From the NCBI GenBank assembly GCA_964545065.1, contig CAZJEO010000001.1, positions 128,663 to 192,662 of the forward strand: a stretch of DNA of 64,000 bases. The letters run 5' to 3'. Below, piece by piece: positions 2,825-50,910 of this stretch; within the stretch, counting starts at the first letter, position 1, and each line of letters begins with the position of its first letter. The notes beneath the pieces are model-generated. The model saw only the letters and a program-made list of their open reading frames with translations. It did not search any database and had not been told where the DNA came from. Both the position numbers and the translations under genes were made by a program. Source of the stretch: Candidatus Woesearchaeota archaeon (GTDB lineage: Archaea > Nanobdellota > Nanobdellia > Pacearchaeales > GW2011-AR1).

Positions 2825-2853
2825 AACACACCCACCAAATAGGTCTAAAAAAA

Positions 2854-2882
2854 GGGCGTACCCAAAGAGGGCACGAGAACCT
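2854..2882. repeat. 29-nt repeat GGGCGTACCCAAAGAGGGCACGAGAACCT (second copy at 33371-33399 inside nusA)
   Basis: 27/29 identity between the two copies. GC-rich in an AT-rich genome. Confidence 0.6.
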
Positions 2883-2965
2883 GCAAGCAGGTACCCCGAA
2901 AGATTTTGAAAAAAAATCTTTACAAGGGGCAACATTTAAATATCATATATGTATTCGATTATCAT
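2883..2965 (+). promoter_or_regulatory. arsR promoter region: A-rich inverted repeat, TTTAAATA box and palindromic CATATATG/ATCATAT elements
   Basis: AAAGATTTT-gaaaa-AAAATCTTT inverted repeat. TTTAAATA sits about 30 nt upstream of the ATG at 2966. ATCATAT direct repeats overlap the start. Confidence 0.35.
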
Positions 2966-5253: not shown

Positions 5254-7743
5254 ATGAAAAAAATATATAAAATAGAAGGAATTACTTGTGCTAGTTGTGC
5301 TGGGCATATAGAAAGGGCCGTGAAGAAAATTAAAGGTGTAACAAATGCAAGTGTGAATTTTGCTAACAAAAAAGCATATATTGAAGGAGATTTTAATGAT
5401 AATGAGATAAAAGAATCTGTTTCTAAAATTGGTAATTATAAAGCAATATCAGAAGATGAAAAAGATAGTGAGGTTAAAAAAGAAGGAAAAGATTCTGGAA
5501 AAGAACAAACAACGACTTTTACTGTTAAAGGTTTAGATAATCCTCATTGTAGTATGACTGTTGAAAAAGCTGTTAAAAAATTGAAAGGTATTGGTAAGGT
5601 TGATATTAATATTAATACTCACAAGGCTAAAATTACTCATTCAATTCCTAAAGAGGAAATAATCAAAGCAATAAATGATGCAGGTTATGAAGTTTTGAAA
5701 GAAAGTGAAGATGAAAAAGATTCGGAAATTAAAGAGATGAACAAGGCTAAAAAAAGAATGTGGTATGCTTGGATATTTGCTTTGCCTGTTGGTATATTAA
5801 TGATTTTGGAAATGTTCACTAAATTGGAAGTTCCTTATATTGATTATATTTTTGTTTTAGCTGCTATCCCTGTTTTGTTTATTTTTGGTTGGAAGACTTA
5901 TGTTTCTGGGTTGAAGTCTGCAAGGTATCTTGCATTTAATATGGACTTCTTAATTATGCTTGGAACATTTGCAGCATTTATTACTGGGATAATCGGGTTT
6001 TTTCTTCCTATAGAAAATTATGCTGCAATAGCCGCAATGATTATGGCTTTTCATTTGACAGGGAGATATGTTGAAGCTAAGGCAAGAGGGAAAGCATCTG
6101 AAGCTATAAAAAAATTACTTGAGTTGGGTGTAAAAACTGCGGTGGTTATTAGAAATAATTCCCCAAGGGATGACTCCTCAAAGGATGACTCTGGTGAGCC
6201 GTCTGGTGAGCCTAAGGAAATTGAAATTCCTATTTCTGAAGTTAAGATTGGAGATGTGATGATTGTTAAACCAGGAGAAAAGATTCCTACAGATGGTATT
6301 GTTATTAAGGGTGAATCTGCGGTTGATGAATCAATGGTGAGTGGAGAGAGTATGCCTGTTGAAAAAATGAAGAATTCAAAAGTTATTGGAGCTACAGTTA
6401 ATCAAGATGGTGTTTTATATGTTAAGGCGGAGAAGATTGGTAAGGATACTTTTTTGTCTCAGGTTGTTAAGTTAGTTGAAGAGGCTCAAGGAAGTAAGAT
6501 TCCAATACAGGAATTTGCAGATAAGATTACTCGGTACTTTGTTCCTGTTGTTATTGTGGTAGCTGTTTTAACGATTTTCATCTGGCTTGTTTTTCCAGAA
6601 GTAATGCAAAGTATAGCTGGTTTTTTTGACTTTCTCCCTTGGATTAATTTTAATGTTGGGCATGTTGCTCTTGCATTATTTGCTGCAATAGCTGTTTTAG
6701 TTATTGCTTGTCCTTGTGCCTTGGGTCTTGCTACACCAACTGCATTAATGGTTGGTTCTGGTTTAGGAGCTGGGAAAGGTATCTTCATTAGAAGGGGGGA
6801 AGCTATTCAAACAATGAAGGAAATTAAGACTATTATGTTTGATAAAACTGGAACAATAACGAAAGGGAAACCAGAAGTTACAGATATTATTGGAGATGAA
6901 AAGCAGATCTTAAAGATAGCAGGTTCTGTTGAGAGTGTTTCAGAGCACCCTCTTTCTAAGGCAATTGTAAAAAGAGCTAAGGAAAAGAGAATTAAATTGT
7001 TAGAAGTTAAGAACTTTAAAGCTAAGAGAGGTAGAGGAATTGAAGCTAGTTTAGGAAGAAATAAAATTCTTATTGGAAATAGAAAATTAATGACTGAGAA
7101 TAAAATTAGTTTTGAAGGTTATGAAGATAGAATTATAGAACTTGAAAATGATGGTAAGACTGTTATGATTTTATCTGATAATGGCAAAGTTTTAGGGCTC
7201 ATAGCTGTTGCAGATACTTTGAAACAAGATGCTAAAAAAACTATTTCTGAATTAAAAGAAATGGGTCTTAAGACTGTTATAATTACAGGAGATAATGAAA
7301 GAACTGCTAAGGCCATTGCAAAGCAAGTTGGTATTGATTCTGTTTTAGCAGATGTGTTACCTGATGAAAAAATGAAGAAAGTTATGGAGCTTCAGAAGAC
7401 AGGAATGGTGGCTTTTGTTGGCGATGGTATTAATGATGCTCCTGCTTTGAAGCAGGCAAATGTTGGAATTGCGATTGGAACTGGAACAGATATTGCAATT
7501 GAATCGGGAGATATAATTCTTGCTAAGGGTGATTTGCAGGGAGTTGTTTCTGCAATTAAGTTAAGCAAGGAAACATTCAAGAAAATAAAACAAAACTTGT
7601 TCTGGGCTTTTGGTTATAATATTGTAGCTATCCCTCTTGCGATAATTGGAGTTTTGCATCCTGTGATTGCTGAGATAGCAATGGCGACTTCTTCATTGAC
7701 TGTTGTGGGGAATGCTAATCTTTTGAGAAGGAAGAAGATTTAG
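5254..7743 (+). CDS. copA: copper-translocating P1B-type ATPase with two N-terminal HMA domains
   Basis: [13 protein letters not shown] motif, [19 protein letters not shown] and GDGINDAP motifs. 829 aa. Confidence 0.9.
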
Positions 7744-7923: not shown

Positions 7924-9162
7924 ATGATAATTGAAACATCTGTGGAAAATTATTTATCGATTAAAGAAAAAGTTACACTTAGCCTTGACTCTGGTTCTAG
8001 CAAAAAACTTTCAAATAATTTAGTAGAAATGCCTAAAAACGAAAGATTGCTCAAGTCTGCAGTAATTTACGGAGCAAATGCATCAGGAAAATCTAACATA
8101 ATAAAATCGGTCTTTTTTATTTGGAACATGGTTAAAAACTCTCACTTATTTAATGTTGATGTAAAAATTCCCCGAGTTCCCTTTAAATTAGAAGAAAGCT
8201 ATCTAAAAAAACCAAGTAAATTTGAGATAATATTTATTCATAATAAAATAAAATACAAATATGGTTTTTCATGTGATAATGATAAATTCATTGAAGAATA
8301 TTTATATTACTGGCCTCAAGGAAGAGAGTCTAAAATTTTTAGTAGAAAAAACTCAAAAGAATTTGATTTCACAATTGATAGAAAACAACAACAATTAATT
8401 AAATCGCAAACAAATGAAAATGTGCTATATCTTTCGAGAGCAACTCAATTAGGATATCAAGGAACCAAAGAAGCTTATGATTTTATAATAAATAATCTTG
8501 TTATAAATTATAGTCCCATGTGGGAAGAGATTACAATTAAAAAAATATATGAAGATAATAAATTAAAAAATAAGATTATTGAAATACTTCAAAAAGCAGA
8601 TTTTGGTGGCATAACAGACATTAAAGTTATCAAAGATAAAAGAAAAGTTGGAGGAATTGAGTTTAAATTTGAAAAAGAAAAGATACTATCCAATCCATTA
8701 AAACCAGAAGAACAAGAATTCTATGATTTCAAATTTGTTCATAAGACTAAAAGTGGAAAATTAATTGATTTTGCATTCAATGAAGAATCTAATGGTACGA
8801 GAAGGACACTCTCCATGCTTGGGCCAATATTTGAAATATTAGAACTAGGAAAAGTCGCATTCATTGATGAATTTGAATTAAATTTGCATTCCAACATTAC
8901 AAAGTTTTTAATAAAACTTTTTAATAGTAAATTAAATAAAAAAAATGCTCAATTAATTTTTACAACTCACGACACAACTTTGTTAGATAATGAAATATTT
9001 AGAAGAGATCAAATATATATTTGTTCAAAAGATAAAAATAACTCAAGTAAATTAAATTCTTATATCGATTACAATCTTAGAGAAGATTCTGACTTTGAAA
9101 GAGCTTATTTAAATGGAAGAGTGGGAGGACTTCCTTTTATAGATGAAACTTTATTCAATTAA
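7924..9162 (+). CDS. AAA_21-type ATPase (AbiLi/RloA-like) of a two-gene module
   Basis: Walker A VIYGANASGKSNIIKS. ABC-like Walker B/D-loop LIFTTHDTTLLD. About 400 aa, the typical partner of RloB proteins. Confidence 0.7.
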   Translation: MIIETSVENYLSIKEKVTLSLDSGSSKKLSNNLVEMPKNERLLKSAVIYGANASGKSNIIKSVFFIWNMVKNSHLFNVDVKIPRVPFKLEESYLKKPSKFEIIFIHNKIKYKYGFSCDNDKFIEEYLYYWPQGRESKIFSRKNSKEFDFTIDRKQQQLIKSQTNENVLYLSRATQLGYQGTKEAYDFIINNLVINYSPMWEEITIKKIYEDNKLKNKIIEILQKADFGGITDIKVIKDKRKVGGIEFKFEKEKILSNPLKPEEQEFYDFKFVHKTKSGKLIDFAFNEESNGTRRTLSMLGPIFEILELGKVAFIDEFELNLHSNITKFLIKLFNSKLNKKNAQLIFTTHDTTLLDNEIFRRDQIYICSKDKNNSSKLNSYIDYNLREDSDFERAYLNGRVGGLPFIDETLFN

Positions 9163-9164
9163 AA

Positions 9165-9770
9165 ATGGTGAGGAAAAGAGGGAGAAAACCCACAAACAAT
9201 CTTTGGATATTTTGTGAAGGTGAAAAAACAGAAATTAATTATTTTAGTAAATTAAAAACGCATGAAAGAATTTCTAGAATTAATATAAAAGTCAAGAGTG
9301 CAGATAAAATTACTGATGCTATTGGAGTTGTAAAATATGCCATTAGTTTTCTTCAAAATAAAAAAAGAGATTTTGAACCTGGTGATTTGATCTATTGCGT
9401 GCTTGATAGAGATGCTAACACAAATCAACATCTAGAAAAGGCATTAAAATTAGCAAACGAGAATGGTATCCTAATTATATTTTCTAACCCTTGTTTTGAA
9501 TATTGGATTCTTTGCCATTTTGAATATTTCATCACAACCTGTAATCCAGATGATATGATTAGAAAATTAAAGAAAAATTTAGGAATATATAGAAAGAATG
9601 ATTCGGATATTTACAAAAAGACGCAAGATAAAATAGCAATTGCGATAAGTAATGCTAAAAAAATTAAAGATACTCATGAAAAAAATGGGATCAAATTAAT
9701 TAGCCGAGAAAGTAATCCTTCAACATATGTTTTTGAATTGATTGAAAAGATTGAAGAATTAAGAGATTAA
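9165..9770 (+). CDS. RloB-like (AbiLii-like, TOPRIM/OLD-related) protein
   Basis: N-terminus WIFCEGEKTEINYF matches the RloB signature (CEGEKTEPNYF). Begins 3 nt after the ATPase stop. Confidence 0.7.
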   Translation: MVRKRGRKPTNNLWIFCEGEKTEINYFSKLKTHERISRINIKVKSADKITDAIGVVKYAISFLQNKKRDFEPGDLIYCVLDRDANTNQHLEKALKLANENGILIIFSNPCFEYWILCHFEYFITTCNPDDMIRKLKKNLGIYRKNDSDIYKKTQDKIAIAISNAKKIKDTHEKNGIKLISRESNPSTYVFELIEKIEELRD

Positions 9771-23311: not shown

Positions 23312-23383
23312 GGCTCCATAGCTTCCCAAGGGATGACCTCTTCGAGGCCTCAGCCTTTTTCGGTTGCTTCGCAGTCACCATAC
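23312..23383 (+). mobile_element. mini-element copy A: a 12-nt duplicate of the tRNA-Lys 5' end plus a 60-nt GC-rich insert with the TCCCAAGGGATGACC core
   Basis: GGCTCCATAGCT at 23312-23323 repeats the start of the tRNA at 23384. Core at 23324-23338. Together with the preceding AGCTATGG the 5' duplicate forms an 8-bp perfect inverted repeat. Confidence 0.55.
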
Positions 23384-32964: not shown

Positions 32965-33086
32965 ATCCCCAATAAGTTTATAAAATGATTAATTCTTCAA
33001 GAAATATAAAAGATGGAAATGAAAAATAGGAAATTTTGCATGGATACAAAATCAGGAGATTTTGCATAATGGTGAACACGATAAAC

Positions 33087-33536
33087 ATGCAGGACATGAG
33101 ATACCTTAATTTATTTGGTAGGGTTACTCAAGTTAATACGCGGTTTTGTTTTAAGTACAATGAGGGACTTGTTTTTTGTGTTCCAAAGCCAATGATTTTC
33201 AAAGCTGTTGGAAAAGGTGCAAGCAATATTAGAAAATTAAATGAAATTCTCGGAAAGAAAATAAAAATTATTGCAAGTCCGCGAGGAATTGAAGATGCTA
33301 AATCTTTTATTGAAAGTATTGTAAAACCAGTTACATTTAAGGGTTTGGAAGTTAAGGATAATACCCAAACGGGCATACCCAAGGAGGGCACGAGAACCTC
33401 TAACGAGGCAAGTGAAATTGTACTTACTGCAGGAATGCAGAGTAAGGCGGCTTTGATTGGCAGGAATAAGAGAAGGCTTTTAGAGATGCAAAAAATTGTT
33501 CATGATTTTTTTGGGAAAGAGTTTCGGATTATTTAG
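33087..33536 (+). CDS. nusA: archaeal NusA-like KH-domain transcription factor
   Basis: Two KH-type GxxG regions (AVGKGASNIRKL, ALIGRNKRRL) and the conserved position after rpoA. Exact start uncertain (candidate ATGs at 33069 and 33087). Confidence 0.6.
   Translation: MQDMRYLNLFGRVTQVNTRFCFKYNEGLVFCVPKPMIFKAVGKGASNIRKLNEILGKKIKIIASPRGIEDAKSFIESIVKPVTFKGLEVKDNTQTGIPKEGTRTSNEASEIVLTAGMQSKAALIGRNKRRLLEMQKIVHDFFGKEFRII
33371..33399. repeat. 29-nt repeat copy inside nusA (GGGCATACCCAAGGAGGGCACGAGAACCT)
   Basis: 27/29 match to 2854-2882. In-frame, encoding GIPKEGTRTS in the inter-KH region. Confidence 0.6.
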
Positions 33537-45360: not shown

Positions 45361-45556
45361 GTAATTGATAGGAAAAGGAGATAGATAAATTTATTGGATA
45401 TTAGCTGCTTCTAAGATTAATGGCTCAACATCGGCTTTCAGACACGATGTTTCGCTAAGAATATAATTAATGTGAAAGAAATTTATTACGCTGATTATTA
45501 GATTATCAGTTTATTAATTTGCGAATGTTAATGAGCAAGAATTTTTTATTATCAAA

Positions 45557-45804
45557 CCTTCAAACTAACTATCTTACTAATTCCATCATGCATTTGCAGA
45601 CAACCCGCTGGTTTTCTTTACTCAAGCCCACACTCGTTTCTGTGGATTAGACTCGTGTAAACTCTCGGACTTTCCTCCCCCCAAGGGATGATTCTGGTGA
45701 ACCTCAAAGCATTGAACCCGATTTCTAATGCAATCCGGTGAAATCGCGAGCATGATGGGAATTTATACCTTTAAACTAACTATTTTTGAGATGCCATCAT
45801 GCAT
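45557..45804. mobile_element. mini-element copy B at the smc 3' end: a 37-nt direct duplication encoding the smc C-terminus, flanking a ~174-nt insert with the CCCCAAGGGATGA core
   Basis: DR1 45557-45593 and DR2 45768-45804 (28/37 nt identical). Both translate on the minus strand to MHDGISKIVSLKV-stop. The insert shares GCCCACACTC, CGTGTAAACTCT and the core with copy C. Confidence 0.65.
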
Positions 45805-49332: not shown

Positions 49333-49437
49333 CGGGAACCTCCAGCGGGTTCTTCGCAACTCCAGCTACCCAGCAGGAAGCTGACGAATTTAATTTCAAA
49401 CATTAAGATAAAAAATCAGAGAGGTTTTTAAGGTTTG

Positions 49438-49743
49438 CTAGAATTTGTACAAATATTTTTTCACATTTTGAACTTTTCCGAATTTTATAGGAATTCCTTC
49501 TTTTTTTAAGAACGCTATTTTATTTTTTGTTCCAGAAGCAAAACCTCCGACTTCTCCATTTGAATTTATGACCCTATGACATGGCACTTGTGGGGCGTAG
49601 GGGTTTTTGTTCATTGCTGTTCCTACGGCTTGATATGCTTTTGTGTTTAGTGCTTGAGCAAGAGCTTTGTAGGTTGTGATTTTTCCTTTTGGAACTTGCC
49701 TTAACAAGGCGTAACATTTTTCTGAGAATGATTTTTGTGGCAT
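49438..49743 (-). CDS. ogt: methylated-DNA-protein-cysteine methyltransferase-like protein (C-terminal domain only)
   Basis: PCHRVINSNG active-site motif. ATG at 49743-49741 gives 101 aa (the track's longer ORF uses a GTG start). Confidence 0.7.
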   Translation of the reverse strand: MPQKSFSEKCYALLRQVPKGKITTYKALAQALNTKAYQAVGTAMNKNPYAPQVPCHRVINSNGEVGGFASGTKNKIAFLKKEGIPIKFGKVQNVKKYLYKF

Positions 49744-49895
49744 TTTGAAAATAGCGGGGGCTGCTCGAGCCCACACTCAGAGTTATTAATTGTAATTTTC
49801 TCTCTTCGTGTAAACTCTTCCCAAGGGATGACCCAAGAAGGGCCTCGGAATTTGAGTTCAAATCCCTTATTGATTTCATTTTAAAAATAGCGGGG
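49741..49895. mobile_element. mini-element copy C between tRNA-iMet and ogt: a 21-nt direct duplication (tRNA 3' end plus ogt start) flanking a 113-nt insert with the TCCCAAGGGATGACC core
   Basis: CATTTTGAAAATAGCGGGGGC at 49741-49761 and CATTTTAAAAATAGCGGGGGC at 49875-49895. Core at 49819-49833. Also contains GCCCACACTC, CGTGTAAACTCT and a T-loop-like GTTCAAATCCC. Confidence 0.65.
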
Positions 49896-49963
49896 GCGGG
49901 ATTTGAACCACGCGACCTCCGGGTTATGGGCCCGACGAGCACTCCAGACTGCTCCACCCCGCT
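49889..49963 (-). tRNA. tRNA-Met (CAT), initiator-like (A1:U72, AGCGGGG start)
   Basis: Reverse complement reads AGCGGGGTGGAGC...TCGGGCCCATAACCCGG...TTCAAATCCCGCCCCCGCT. Anticodon loop CCCATAA. Confidence 0.75.
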
Positions 49964-50047
49964 AATAATTGGTGTGTCAGATGACTTTTAAAGTTTTCTT
50001 AATCAAATAATAAAGCTTATAAGTTTAAGATTATATTCTAAAAGTAT

Positions 50048-50129
50048 GCCCAGATGGCGGAGTGGTTAACGCACTAGATTGCTAATCTAGACCCTTCGGG
50101 GTGCGTAGGTTCGAATCCTGCTCTGGGCG
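50048..50129 (+). tRNA. tRNA-Ser (anticodon GCT), type II with long variable arm
   Basis: Acceptor GCCCAGA/TCTGGGC. Anticodon stem-loop CTAGA-TTGCTAA-TCTAG. Variable arm CCCTTCGGGGTGC. T-arm GTAGGTTCGAATCCTGC. Confidence 0.8.
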
Positions 50130-50138
50130 TATATTAAA

Positions 50139-50705
50139 ATGAAATTCATTATTATTCACGGATGTCCTTCAAATGCAGAGAAAGCTATGAGCCCTGAAAC
50201 AAGGACTTATGATAAACATTGGATTCCTTGGACTAAAAGAGAATTGTCTTCAAAAGGAATTGAAGTAGAAACACCCCTTATGCCTGAACCTTGGAAACCA
50301 GATTATAATAAATTTAAAGAGGAATTTGAAAAATATAGTGTTGGAGAAGATAGTGTATTAATTGGTCATAGTTGTGGATGTTCTTTTTTAGTTAGATGGC
50401 TTGGAGAAACAAAACAAAAAATAAATAAATTGATTCTTGTGGCACCGTGGAAAATTGAAGAAGGGGCTAGTGAATCTAAAAAAGCATTTTATGAATTCTC
50501 GATTGATACAACTATCAAAGATAGAGTTAAAGAAATCACAATGTTTACTGCTAATGATGAAGATGAAGATGGGAAGAAAGGTTTGAAAATGTTTCACGAA
50601 GCTTTTGGAGGGAAAATTATTGAACTTCAAGGAAGAGGACATTACACACTGGGGGACATGGGAACAGAAGAGTTTCCCGAATTAATCAAAGAAGCAACCC
50701 AATAA
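50139..50705 (+). CDS. small alpha/beta serine hydrolase (RBBP9/YdeN-like)
   Basis: IIIHGCPS near the N-terminus and LIGHSCGCSF (GxSxG nucleophile elbow). 188 aa. Confidence 0.6.
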   Translation: MKFIIIHGCPSNAEKAMSPETRTYDKHWIPWTKRELSSKGIEVETPLMPEPWKPDYNKFKEEFEKYSVGEDSVLIGHSCGCSFLVRWLGETKQKINKLILVAPWKIEEGASESKKAFYEFSIDTTIKDRVKEITMFTANDEDEDGKKGLKMFHEAFGGKIIELQGRGHYTLGDMGTEEFPELIKEATQ

Positions 50706-50735
50706 ATCAAACTTTAATATAAAATTATATATAAT

Positions 50736-50822
50736 ATTGCTAATCTAGACCCTTCGGGGTGCCCACGGTTTCCCAAGGAGGGATGACCTCGCTTTGCTCA
50801 GCCTCGAATCCTGCTCTGGACG
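50736..50822 (+). pseudogene. partial tRNA-Ser copy (anticodon loop to 3' end) with mini-element copy D (41 nt, core TCCCAAGGAGGGATGACC) replacing the 5' T-stem
   Basis: ATTGCTAATCTAGACCCTTCGGGGTGC and TCGAATCCTGCTCTGGACG match the tRNA-Ser at 50048 (1 mismatch). The insert at 50763-50803 replaces GTAGGT. Confidence 0.65.
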
Positions 50823-50910
50823 TTTTTTTAATAATTCTCATTTAATTAAATTTATAAATAATAATTACTTATCATATTATATAAAAAAGAGTTGAAAGGG
50901 GGGTGATGAA

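Follow-up and report, generated by a model that had tools for sequence, protein, structure and literature searches.

Tyrosine integrases reportedly cross over in the anticodon- and T-loops of tRNA genes, and casposons are said to insert at the 3' ends of tRNA genes, where the flanking duplication takes in the tRNA end and is unusually long. The Rickettsia palindromic elements (RPE) are short, multi-copy hairpins that lie in frame even in essential genes, as well as near or in RNA genes, and have no recognisable transposase. Integrative elements of tRNA and gene 3' ends leave tRNA fragments behind (Sugahara et al. 2012, PMC3293823). In the tiny, AT-rich genomes of DPANN archaea, gene exchange and the frequent rearrangement of tRNA genes are poorly understood. 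Here, we describe a locus in a 64-kb stretch of DNA from a DPANN-type archaeon (the whole stretch is called the window below), where a mini-element, copy C, lies between the gene of an initiator tRNA-Met (tRNA-iMet) and an ogt-like gene. We consider it probable, at roughly 0.55, that copy C is a non-coding, hairpin-rich repeated element that integrated at the tRNA-iMet/ogt junction in an attachment-site-like (att-like) manner and carried a copy of that junction in with it. The locus offers a before-and-after picture, with a 10-nt gap between the two genes in relatives versus a 115-nt element here, and both genes undamaged.

Read on the minus strand, the locus runs from tRNA-Met(CAT) (49963->49888) through TTTTTAAA, an ATG, the 115-nt insert, GCCCCCGCTA TTTTCAAA and a second ATG into ogt. 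Its features are as follows, with L-numbers for loci of relatives or metagenomes and, further below, P-numbers for database proteins.

49888-49963 (ARAGORN/Rfam ends 49887/8-49963/4), minus strand: initiator-type tRNA-Met(CAT), called by ARAGORN and by Rfam RF00005 (50.3 bits).
49877-49897, minus strand: repeat copy 1 (DR1), in which the final 10 nt of the tRNA are followed by the 8-nt spacer TTTTTAAA and an ATG.
49762-49876: mini-element copy C, the 115-nt insert, absent from the orthologous junction in L074, L077 and L078.
49856-49866, plus strand: GTTCAAATCCC, an 11-nt perfect inverted copy of the tRNA-iMet T-arm (49898-49908).
49817-49850, plus strand: the family modules CTTCCCAAGGGATGACC (module d) and then CCCAAGAAGGGCCTCGGAA (diverged core module).
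49765-49818, minus strand: long hairpin of the C/H subfamily, predicted by folding, with the arms GAGUUUACAC and GUGUGGGCUC and an AT-rich loop.
49741-49761, minus strand: repeat copy 2 (DR2), made up of GCCCCCGCTA, TTTTCAAA and the ATG in use by ogt.
49438-49743, minus strand, ATG at 49743-49741: MGMT/ogt-like gene of 101 aa, N-terminus MPQKSFSEK (PF01035, E 1.2e-27).

The tRNA is assigned to the initiator type because it combines an A1:U72 pair with three G:C pairs (GGG/CCC) in the anticodon stem. The 21-mer GCCCCCGCTATTTTYAAAATG (minus strand) has exactly two sites in the window, 49741-49761 and 49877-49897, and two matches were obtained in none of 100 shuffles. The two 21-nt copies agree at 20 of 21 positions, the sole mismatch being C/T; with the discriminator base at 49888, both have 8 nt between the tRNA and the ATG. 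Since the repeat copies are non-identical and the same architecture is present in independent JGI, ENA and NCBI assemblies, an assembly artefact is unlikely. The original prediction, made from the sequence of the window, had recognised a direct repeat of the tRNA-iMet 3' end and the ogt start around an insert, and this repeat is confirmed, with small adjustments to its measurements. The second copy begins at 49877, not 49875, so that the insert spans 115 nt instead of 113, and the distance from tRNA to ogt in the absence of the insert, given there as 11 nt, is 8 nt in both repeat copies and 10 nt in relatives. The further proposal that the insertion parts the tRNA from ogt and yet re-creates the start of the gene agrees with the duplicated junction, which leaves the tRNA 3' end and the ogt start intact.

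We then compared the orthologous junction in relatives, all of them metagenome contigs and at best 74-84% identical. The gene order tRNA-Ser, tRNA-iMet, ogt, RNase HII, SMC is common to the window, L074, L077 and L078; ogt is 78% identical to that of the window in L074 and 79% in L077/L078, and tRNA-iMet is 100% identical in all three, as it also is in L056. In L074, L077 and L078, the tRNA ends in ...CCCGCCCCCGCTA and is followed by 10 nt, TTTTTAAAAA or TTTTTTAAAG, and then directly by the ATG of ogt. A three-way alignment placed the 136 extra nt of the window in a single clean gap in both relatives. Because relatives with an identical tRNA-iMet have an uninterrupted junction, copy C is an insertion relative to orthologous empty sites. 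The comparison of tRNA-iMet/ogt loci suggested in the original prediction thus came out in its favour, and the spacer of the window was found in no relative.

The tRNA-iMet/ogt junction is a hot spot. A 100-aa open reading frame (ORF) lies between the tRNA and ogt in L004-L006, a LAGLIDADG gene adjoins ogt at the junction in L076 and L001, tRNA-iMet is inverted relative to ogt in L003 and L076, and in L056 another gene takes the place of ogt, with the identical tRNA-iMet, RNase HII and SMC kept. As separate observations on these relatives (L076 1650-2452, L001 1-262 and L003 1946-2024), the tRNA-iMet of L076 contains an intron, and the gene after it is that of a LAGLIDADG endonuclease, which in L001, too, stands next to ogt. 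In L004 (2405-2470), a second copy of the first 16 nt of tRNA-Ser stands ~60 nt upstream, and the 46 nt of filler have no GC-rich modules; the duplication of parts of tRNAs in these genomes thus does not always go with the module family described below.

The insert has no ORF of its own. Its minus strand, folded as RNA, gave -35.7 kcal/mol (z = -3.0), and the long hairpin of the C/H subfamily includes three U·G pairs, which restrict its folding to the minus-strand (transcribed) orientation. The AT-rich loop of the insert, TTAATAA, is ~40-47 nt ahead of the ATG of ogt. A reversed T-arm-like segment had been pointed out in the insert before, and GTTCAAATCCC indeed inverts the T-arm of the tRNA perfectly; this segment also gives a local hairpin, ATTTGA-GT-TCAAAT, and its motif GGATTTGAAC follows tRNA-Gln in L042, whose T-loop differs. 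The minus-strand termini of C, AAATCAATAA... and ...GGGCTCGAGCA, are not inverted repeats, and none were seen in the other copies either. The motif GYGTGG left of DR2 was considered as a decayed T-arm that would lengthen the repeat, and was rejected, as GAGTGTGGGCTYGAG is also present in copy H of the window, away from tRNAs.

Copy C is repeated DNA, and is one of at least eight GC-rich modular hairpin mini-elements in the 64-kb window, lettered A to H. Its module d, CTTCCCAAGGGATGACC, includes a 17-nt exact match to copy E (23322-23338), and its 12-mer CCCAAGGGATGA recurs in copies G (6162) and H (45680) and in seven arrays of metagenomes or relatives, several of which lie 33-143 nt from a canonical core. 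C is therefore tied to the family via exact 12-17-mers of the module CCCAAGGGATGA(CC), common to E, G, H and core-bearing metagenome arrays. Furthermore, C and H agree in the order and strand of CTCRAGCCCACACTC, TCGTGTAAACTCT and CCCAAGGGATGA, with a loop between the first two that is unrelated; among 458 kb of sequence compared, no other site has the arms CTCRAGCCCACACTC and TCGTGTAAACTCT. The claim that the insert carries the core of the family stood in part: C fits the three-copy core pattern with 1 mismatch, but a profile of 47 independent non-window canonical cores, which finds A (E 6e-13) and B (4e-15), does not find C. C has a diverged form of the core, which runs antisense to the tRNA.

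The family itself was recognised by a repeat search, which gave a 42-nt segment, 83% identical, at 2850-2891 (copy A, intergenic) and 33367-33408 (copy B). When metagenomes were scanned with the core CCCAARGAGGGCACGAGAA, 58 loci were obtained, ~49 of which are unique copies in AT-rich contigs, including A and B of the window and copies in L008 and L010; the others, from GC-rich bacterial contigs, are chance hits. With a degenerate core pattern, a collection of genome contigs that does not contain the genome of the window yielded 7 hits, of which 5 appear to be chance bacterial matches, and a collection of viral contigs, scanned for the core and for the C/H hairpin, gave no matches. Since these collection scans took exact pattern matches only, the size and diversity of the family are underestimated. 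The Rfam 15 covariance models matched only tRNAs, both at the gathering threshold and at E up to 1. Literature searches gave no published description of the family, and a survey that notes a MITE-dense Woesearchaeal genome (MITE, miniature inverted-repeat transposable element) does so without describing these units (PMC11602168). Apparently, this family of hairpin mini-elements is undescribed so far.

The family consists of arrays of very small hairpin units of 11-20 nt, the number of which varies between copies: TCCC(C)AAGGGA-TGA; CTCCTCAAAGGA-TA; CCCAARGAGGG-CACGAGAA; CCTGCAAGCAGG and variants; and TGAC-NNN-TGNT-NNN-GCCT. A hairpin directly after the core is present in 42 of 49 copies, and because its stem comes in five different complementary types (CCTG/CAGG, CCTC/GAGG, CCCC/GGGG, CCTT/AAGG and CAAC/GTTG), the stems of the family have undergone compensatory change. 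Core copies are usually in frame on the sense strand or beside duplicated tRNA ends; 28 metagenome copies lie in open frames of at least 198 codons, always with the element's sense strand and with more than one phase in use, and most non-coding copies are co-oriented with transcription. The hammerhead (CUGAUGAG) and box C/D-like motifs seen in some modules showed no conservation among copies, and the Shine-Dalgarno-like AAGGAGG of the core is likewise not conserved (AAAGAGG in A, AAGAAGG in C). Array length also differs at one site: L027 (2880-2960) carries 2.5 tandem 33-nt units (core and hairpin) and the same site in L046 carries 1.5, from which we deduce that arrays change copy number by 11-codon steps.

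The structural features just described would be expected if copy C were a selected cis-acting RNA or DNA element, such as an insulator, a terminator, a processing signal or a promoter donor for ogt, with the repeat as part of its function. The significantly stable minus-strand fold, the U·G pairs possible only in the transcribed sense, the compensatory changes among the five stem types and the co-orientation of most non-coding copies with transcription all suit such a role, and TTAATAA, from its position, could serve as a TATA box. Selection of this kind is nevertheless highly improbable, given that C is absent from the orthologous junction of relatives which keep the same genes, that nothing in Rfam matched even at E up to 1, and that C and H show no covariation, their arms being identical. 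Translation of the same modules in frame in NusA, a P-type ATPase and many other ORFs is also hard to reconcile with it.

Evidence on how C arrived comes mainly from its sister element, copy H, whose features are as follows.

45594-45766: copy H, sister of C, downstream of SMC (repeat family D16).
45767-45804: flank of H, the SMC 3' end in use.
45556-45593: flank of H, the displaced copy of the SMC 3' end.

The flanking repeat of H is 38 nt long (38-42), with 82% identity between its copies. Both encode the last 12 SMC codons and the stop, MHDGISKIVSLKV*, and they differ at 9 nt in 7 codons, all of the differences being synonymous and including TCA/AGT for Ser and TAA/TGA for the stop. The displaced SMC end is identical to L056 at 37 of 42 nt and to L079 at 35 of 42, and the end in use is identical to each at 31 of 42; across the whole SMC gene, the window and L056 have 74% DNA identity. 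The first 11 nt of the two repeats, ATGCATGATGG, are identical. A fresh duplication starts out identical, but here the unused copy is the ancestral-looking one, and this pattern argues that H may stem from an imported copy of the gene end and a crossover, instead of a duplication made at insertion and followed by drift. The SMC end in use looks as if it had evolved under protein selection elsewhere.

These allelic repeats bear on another explanation of copy C, as a MITE-like, non-autonomous transposon mobilised in trans by a transposase with 21-nt staggered cuts, in which case the repeat would be a true target-site duplication. C is a multi-copy element with a near-perfect direct repeat around it and an empty site in relatives, 11 nt of its repeat are trailer and start codon specific to the lineage, as expected of a local duplication, copy F, between ogt and RNase HII, has a short 5-nt repeat, and the Woesearchaeal genome of the survey mentioned above was reported to be MITE-dense. 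Transposition of this type is unlikely all the same. Terminal inverted repeats are missing, no transposase gene was found among the 30 window ORFs scanned, and the H repeats, as different synonymous alleles, are impossible from a fresh duplication. In addition, the length of the flanking repeat varies within the family, from 0 (NusA) through 5 (F), 12-29 and 21 (C) to 38 nt (H), whereas to our knowledge the known DDE transposases have fixed target-duplication lengths of 2-15 bp.

We therefore return to att-like integration as the preferred origin of C. A small DNA carrying its own copy of the junction would integrate by a single crossover (Campbell-type, att-like), and no classical transposase cut-and-fill step would be needed. 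For H, an element with its own SMC end would have recombined within the shared ATGCATGATGG, by such an att-like single crossover. By analogy, C probably integrated like H, and DR1 would be an imported mimic of another lineage's junction; the crossover would lie in the shared GCCCCCGCTATTTT, with DR1 as the element-borne and DR2 as the resident copy. The duplicated junction takes in 10 nt of the tRNA 3' end, the spacer of 8 nt and the ATG, and possibly two further codons, and the predicted junction of the circle is ...GGGCTCGAGCA|GCCCCCGCTATTTTTAAAATGAAATCAATAAGG.... After GCCCCCGCTATTTT, the two repeats differ by T versus C, and DR1 continues as ATG AAA TCA and DR2 as ATG CCA CAA AAA TCA. The AAATCA of DR1 resembles the start of an MK(K)S-type ogt allele, and the 6-nt in-frame difference between DR1 and DR2 resembles that between the ogt alleles MKKS (L002, L074, L078) and MPQKS (L001, window). 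The repeat thus brackets the insert as originally described, but, judged from copy H, the duplication was probably not made at insertion, and one copy was probably imported. Because no recombinase gene lies nearby, the element is apparently non-autonomous, and an enzyme, if one is needed, would act in trans or from elsewhere in the genome.

Several points weigh against this mechanism. The C repeats differ at one base, which is compatible with a fresh duplication, and AAATCA is weak evidence in AT-rich DNA. The argument from SMC rests on 42 nt and two outgroups of 75-81% protein identity. A circle of 136 bp is very small for double-stranded DNA, and a Pfam scan of the 30 window ORFs detected no integrase, transposase, Cas1 or reverse transcriptase. 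The d/a modules of C are antisense to the tRNA, unlike ~18 other non-coding copies, and in both C and H they lie opposite to local transcription, which nearly all other copies do not. Moreover, the in-frame copies of the family, such as copy B in NusA, have no flanking repeat, so that at least some members spread by another route, and copy F, 333 nt from C on the far side of ogt, is flanked by a mere 5-nt repeat, ATGTT/ATGTT. Since the evidence from C alone is weak, we hold the mechanism for C with moderate confidence.

The window copies at sites other than tRNA ends and SMC are listed below.

2836-2940, plus strand: copy A, with core, hairpin and an outer CCCC...GGGG helix that encloses a variable hairpin.
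~6160-6215, plus strand: copy G, with modules d, d' and e inserted within the ORF 5254-7743, in the reading frame of a P-type (CopA-like) ATPase.
33363-33413, plus strand: copy B, a 51-nt in-frame insert in the NusA ORF (33069-33536), which adds TQTGIPKEGTRTSNEAS.
49333-49403, minus strand: copy F, a 71-nt GC-rich insert with the module GAGTTGCGAAGAACC, between the ogt stop and the RNase HII ATG.

As a result of copy B, NusA has 155 aa in the window versus 138 aa in ~100 homologues. The empty site in L072 NusA reads GAT AAC|GAA ATT, and the window has GAT AAT|51 nt|GAA ATT. The same NusA codon carries an 18-nt version (L073) and a 54-nt version (P0168) in two other lineages, and the 51-nt unit encodes GIPKEGTRTSNEAS both in the NusA of the window and in an unrelated 203-aa ORF of a Woesearchaeota metagenome-assembled genome (L010). 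In-frame copies within ORFs, even those of essential proteins, as in NusA, where the orthologue lacks the insert, and in the ATPase, are a trait of the family and not of C. Copy A is situated upstream of a gene for an ArsR-family regulator, and its architecture recurs with different stems in six metagenome copies (L022 twice, L025, L037, L045 and L057). Copy F is absent from L074, in which the ATG of RNase HII comes at once at the same position; in the window, ogt thus has an element on either side, C and F.

Duplicated tRNA ends beside elements are found well beyond copy C. In ~12 independent metagenome loci, a complete tRNA is followed by a 2-13-nt trailer, element modules and a second copy of the tRNA end; these second copies start in the T-loop or T-stem and run 2-13 nt past the tRNA, giving repeats of 15-26 nt. 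Two tandem events in L042 have led to three copies of the tRNA-Gln end. The 5' part can be affected as well: the promoter and 5' two-thirds of tRNA-Ala are duplicated in L018, with the element at position 37/38, and a 5' fragment of tRNA-Ser is duplicated in L062, with the element in the D-loop. The boundaries of the repeats at family loci fall in D-, anticodon- and T-loops. All three tRNAs of the window have adjoining partial duplicates with elements, namely C and the following two.

50735-50830: copy D, a partial tRNA-Ser that starts in the anticodon loop and extends to the 3' end, modules standing in for the 5' strand of the T-stem.
23312-23383: copy E, in which 27 nt of modules interrupt an 18-nt duplicate of the 5' end of tRNA-Lys (GGCTCCATAGCT|CAGCCT).

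Copy E is separated by 28 nt from the real tRNA-Lys downstream of it, and stands between this gene and its likely promoter. At the tRNA-Ser(GCT) locus (50047-50830), a gene for a 188-aa serine hydrolase begins 8 nt after the tRNA and is followed by copy D. The equivalent of D in L074 is 1.7 kb from tRNA-Ser, after two different cargo genes, and the tRNA-Ser regions of the window and L074 have the layout of an integrated island.

Insertion points in tRNA genes also raise the question of an archaeal bulge-helix-bulge (BHB) intron or split tRNA, in which DR2 would be the real 3' exon, and splicing would remove DR1 together with the insert. Members of the family do lie at archaeal tRNA-intron positions (37/38 in L018, the D-loop in L062 and copy E, and the T-loop region), and the fold of the whole precursor pairs the 5' strand of the acceptor with DR2. 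On the other hand, the minimum-free-energy folds of C, L018, L032 and D contain no motif of two bulges and a 4-bp helix, although no dedicated BHB search was made; the tRNA as it stands, uninterrupted, is complete and matches that of relatives exactly; and the genuine 37/38 introns of the same lineages are AT-rich and unrelated. Furthermore, the copies within protein genes are always multiples of 3 nt (18, 51 and 54 in NusA) and in frame, and are thus translated, not spliced. We give splicing hardly any credence, and rejected it on the folds, the in-frame copies and the unrelated true introns nearby.

The variability of these sites could instead mean that C is a scar of repair or replication, left when a break or a stalled fork at the highly transcribed tRNA gene was resolved by microhomology-mediated template switching, with hairpin-module DNA from another place taken up as filler and ~21 nt of the junction recopied. 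Flanking duplications of variable length, insertion points in tRNA loops, the inverted copy of the local T-arm within C, the tandem gain or loss of modules (L027 versus L046, and the 18-, 51- and 54-nt versions at the NusA site) and the failure to find a recombinase in the 30 ORFs are all in keeping with this origin. It leaves unexplained, however, the diverged and yet fully synonymous duplicated gene end at H, and is at odds with a ~50-nt unit that is nearly identical in unrelated genes of different genomes (window NusA and the L010 ORF) and with the strong strand bias relative to transcription. A scar is, on balance, distinctly unlikely.

For att-like integration of C, as preferred here, we also considered the consequences for the host. 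In relatives, ogt is presumably co-transcribed with the tRNA, because the 10-nt gap leaves no room for a promoter; the hydrolase gene after tRNA-Ser has the same kind of arrangement, at 8 nt. In the window, ogt stands 136 nt farther from the tRNA, behind a T5 run and several stable hairpins, and is now probably transcribed from within or through the insert, with TTAATAA as a candidate TATA box. The effect on the host is presumably neutral. Family cassettes appear to be tolerated in frame within genes and to accumulate at tRNA and gene termini. If att-like integration is right, the mini-elements would be footprints of frequent recombination between lineages at gene termini.

A broader and tentative proposal, which we regard as somewhat doubtful, is that DPANN-type archaea carry undescribed modular hairpin cassettes that are moved or copied by hairpin- or short-homology-dependent recombination and bring substitute gene ends with them. 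If so, such sites would mark the exchange of alleles and small gene cassettes between lineages, with ogt between C and F, and the hydrolase gene between tRNA-Ser and D, as candidates, and essential proteins would tolerate these units as translated linkers.

The gene context is as follows. The window is AT-rich (33% G+C) and contains an archaeal rpoA-NusA-S12-S7-EF2 cluster, SMC, RNase HII and class I tRNA synthetases; as the nearest database proteins are annotated Pacearchaeota, Nanoarchaeota or Nanoarchaeia, it is assigned to a DPANN-type archaeon. The ogt-like protein has the PCHRV active site, and a database search gave 874 homologues. An exact-protein look-up with the 101-aa sequence gave no match, the database entry being a 112-aa call (P0001, on a 207,866-nt contig) with a GTG start inside the insert (49744-49776, minus strand). 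All close homologues have starts that match the ATG at 49743, which makes it probable that the annotated protein has the wrong N-terminus and is 11 codons too long. The elements thus mislead gene callers, as for the ogt start, and create spurious tRNA fragments. Unrelated to the insertion, an AAA_21 (AbiEii-like ATPase) gene lies beside an RloB-like gene at 7924-9770, which suggests a defence-type gene pair.

Compared with known systems, C is not a member of any named family, because the defining integrase or transposase (among the 30 window ORFs scanned), terminal inverted repeats and fixed duplication were looked for and not found. Like MITEs and the repetitive extragenic palindromic and bacterial interspersed mosaic elements (REP/BIME), the family is small, non-coding and multi-copy, conserves its potential for structure through compensatory change and presumably depends on a trans-acting enzyme; unlike them, it is without terminal inverted repeats or a target duplication of fixed length, and many copies lie in ORFs. 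With casposons, it shares insertion at tRNA 3' ends and a long flanking duplication, but the terminal inverted repeats, the Cas1 gene and the fixed duplication of 14-15 bp that mark casposons were not seen here, and the repeats of this family range over 0-38 nt. The likeness to the RPE is that the present family is also short, hairpin-forming, multi-copy and in frame in genes, with no recognisable transposase. It has no sequence relationship to them, however, and differs in its modular 11-20-nt units of varying number, in being GC-rich within an AT-rich archaeal genome, in its association with duplicated gene termini, and in being open in all three sense frames while seen in ORFs only on the sense strand. 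From the tyrosine-integrase tRNA elements of the SSV/pNOB8 type, it is set apart by inserts that are non-coding, of 115-173 nt and with no integrase nearby, by modules that also lie in frame in protein genes without a repeat, and, for C, by a repeat that extends into the start codon of the next gene. The likeness to these elements lies in inserted DNA flanked by a direct repeat of the tRNA 3' portion, of which one copy preserves an intact gene and a displaced fragment stays, in repeat boundaries within tRNA loops and a site that is variable among relatives, and in the island-like versions at D and L074, which carry cargo genes, together with copy H, which appears to import a copy of a gene end.

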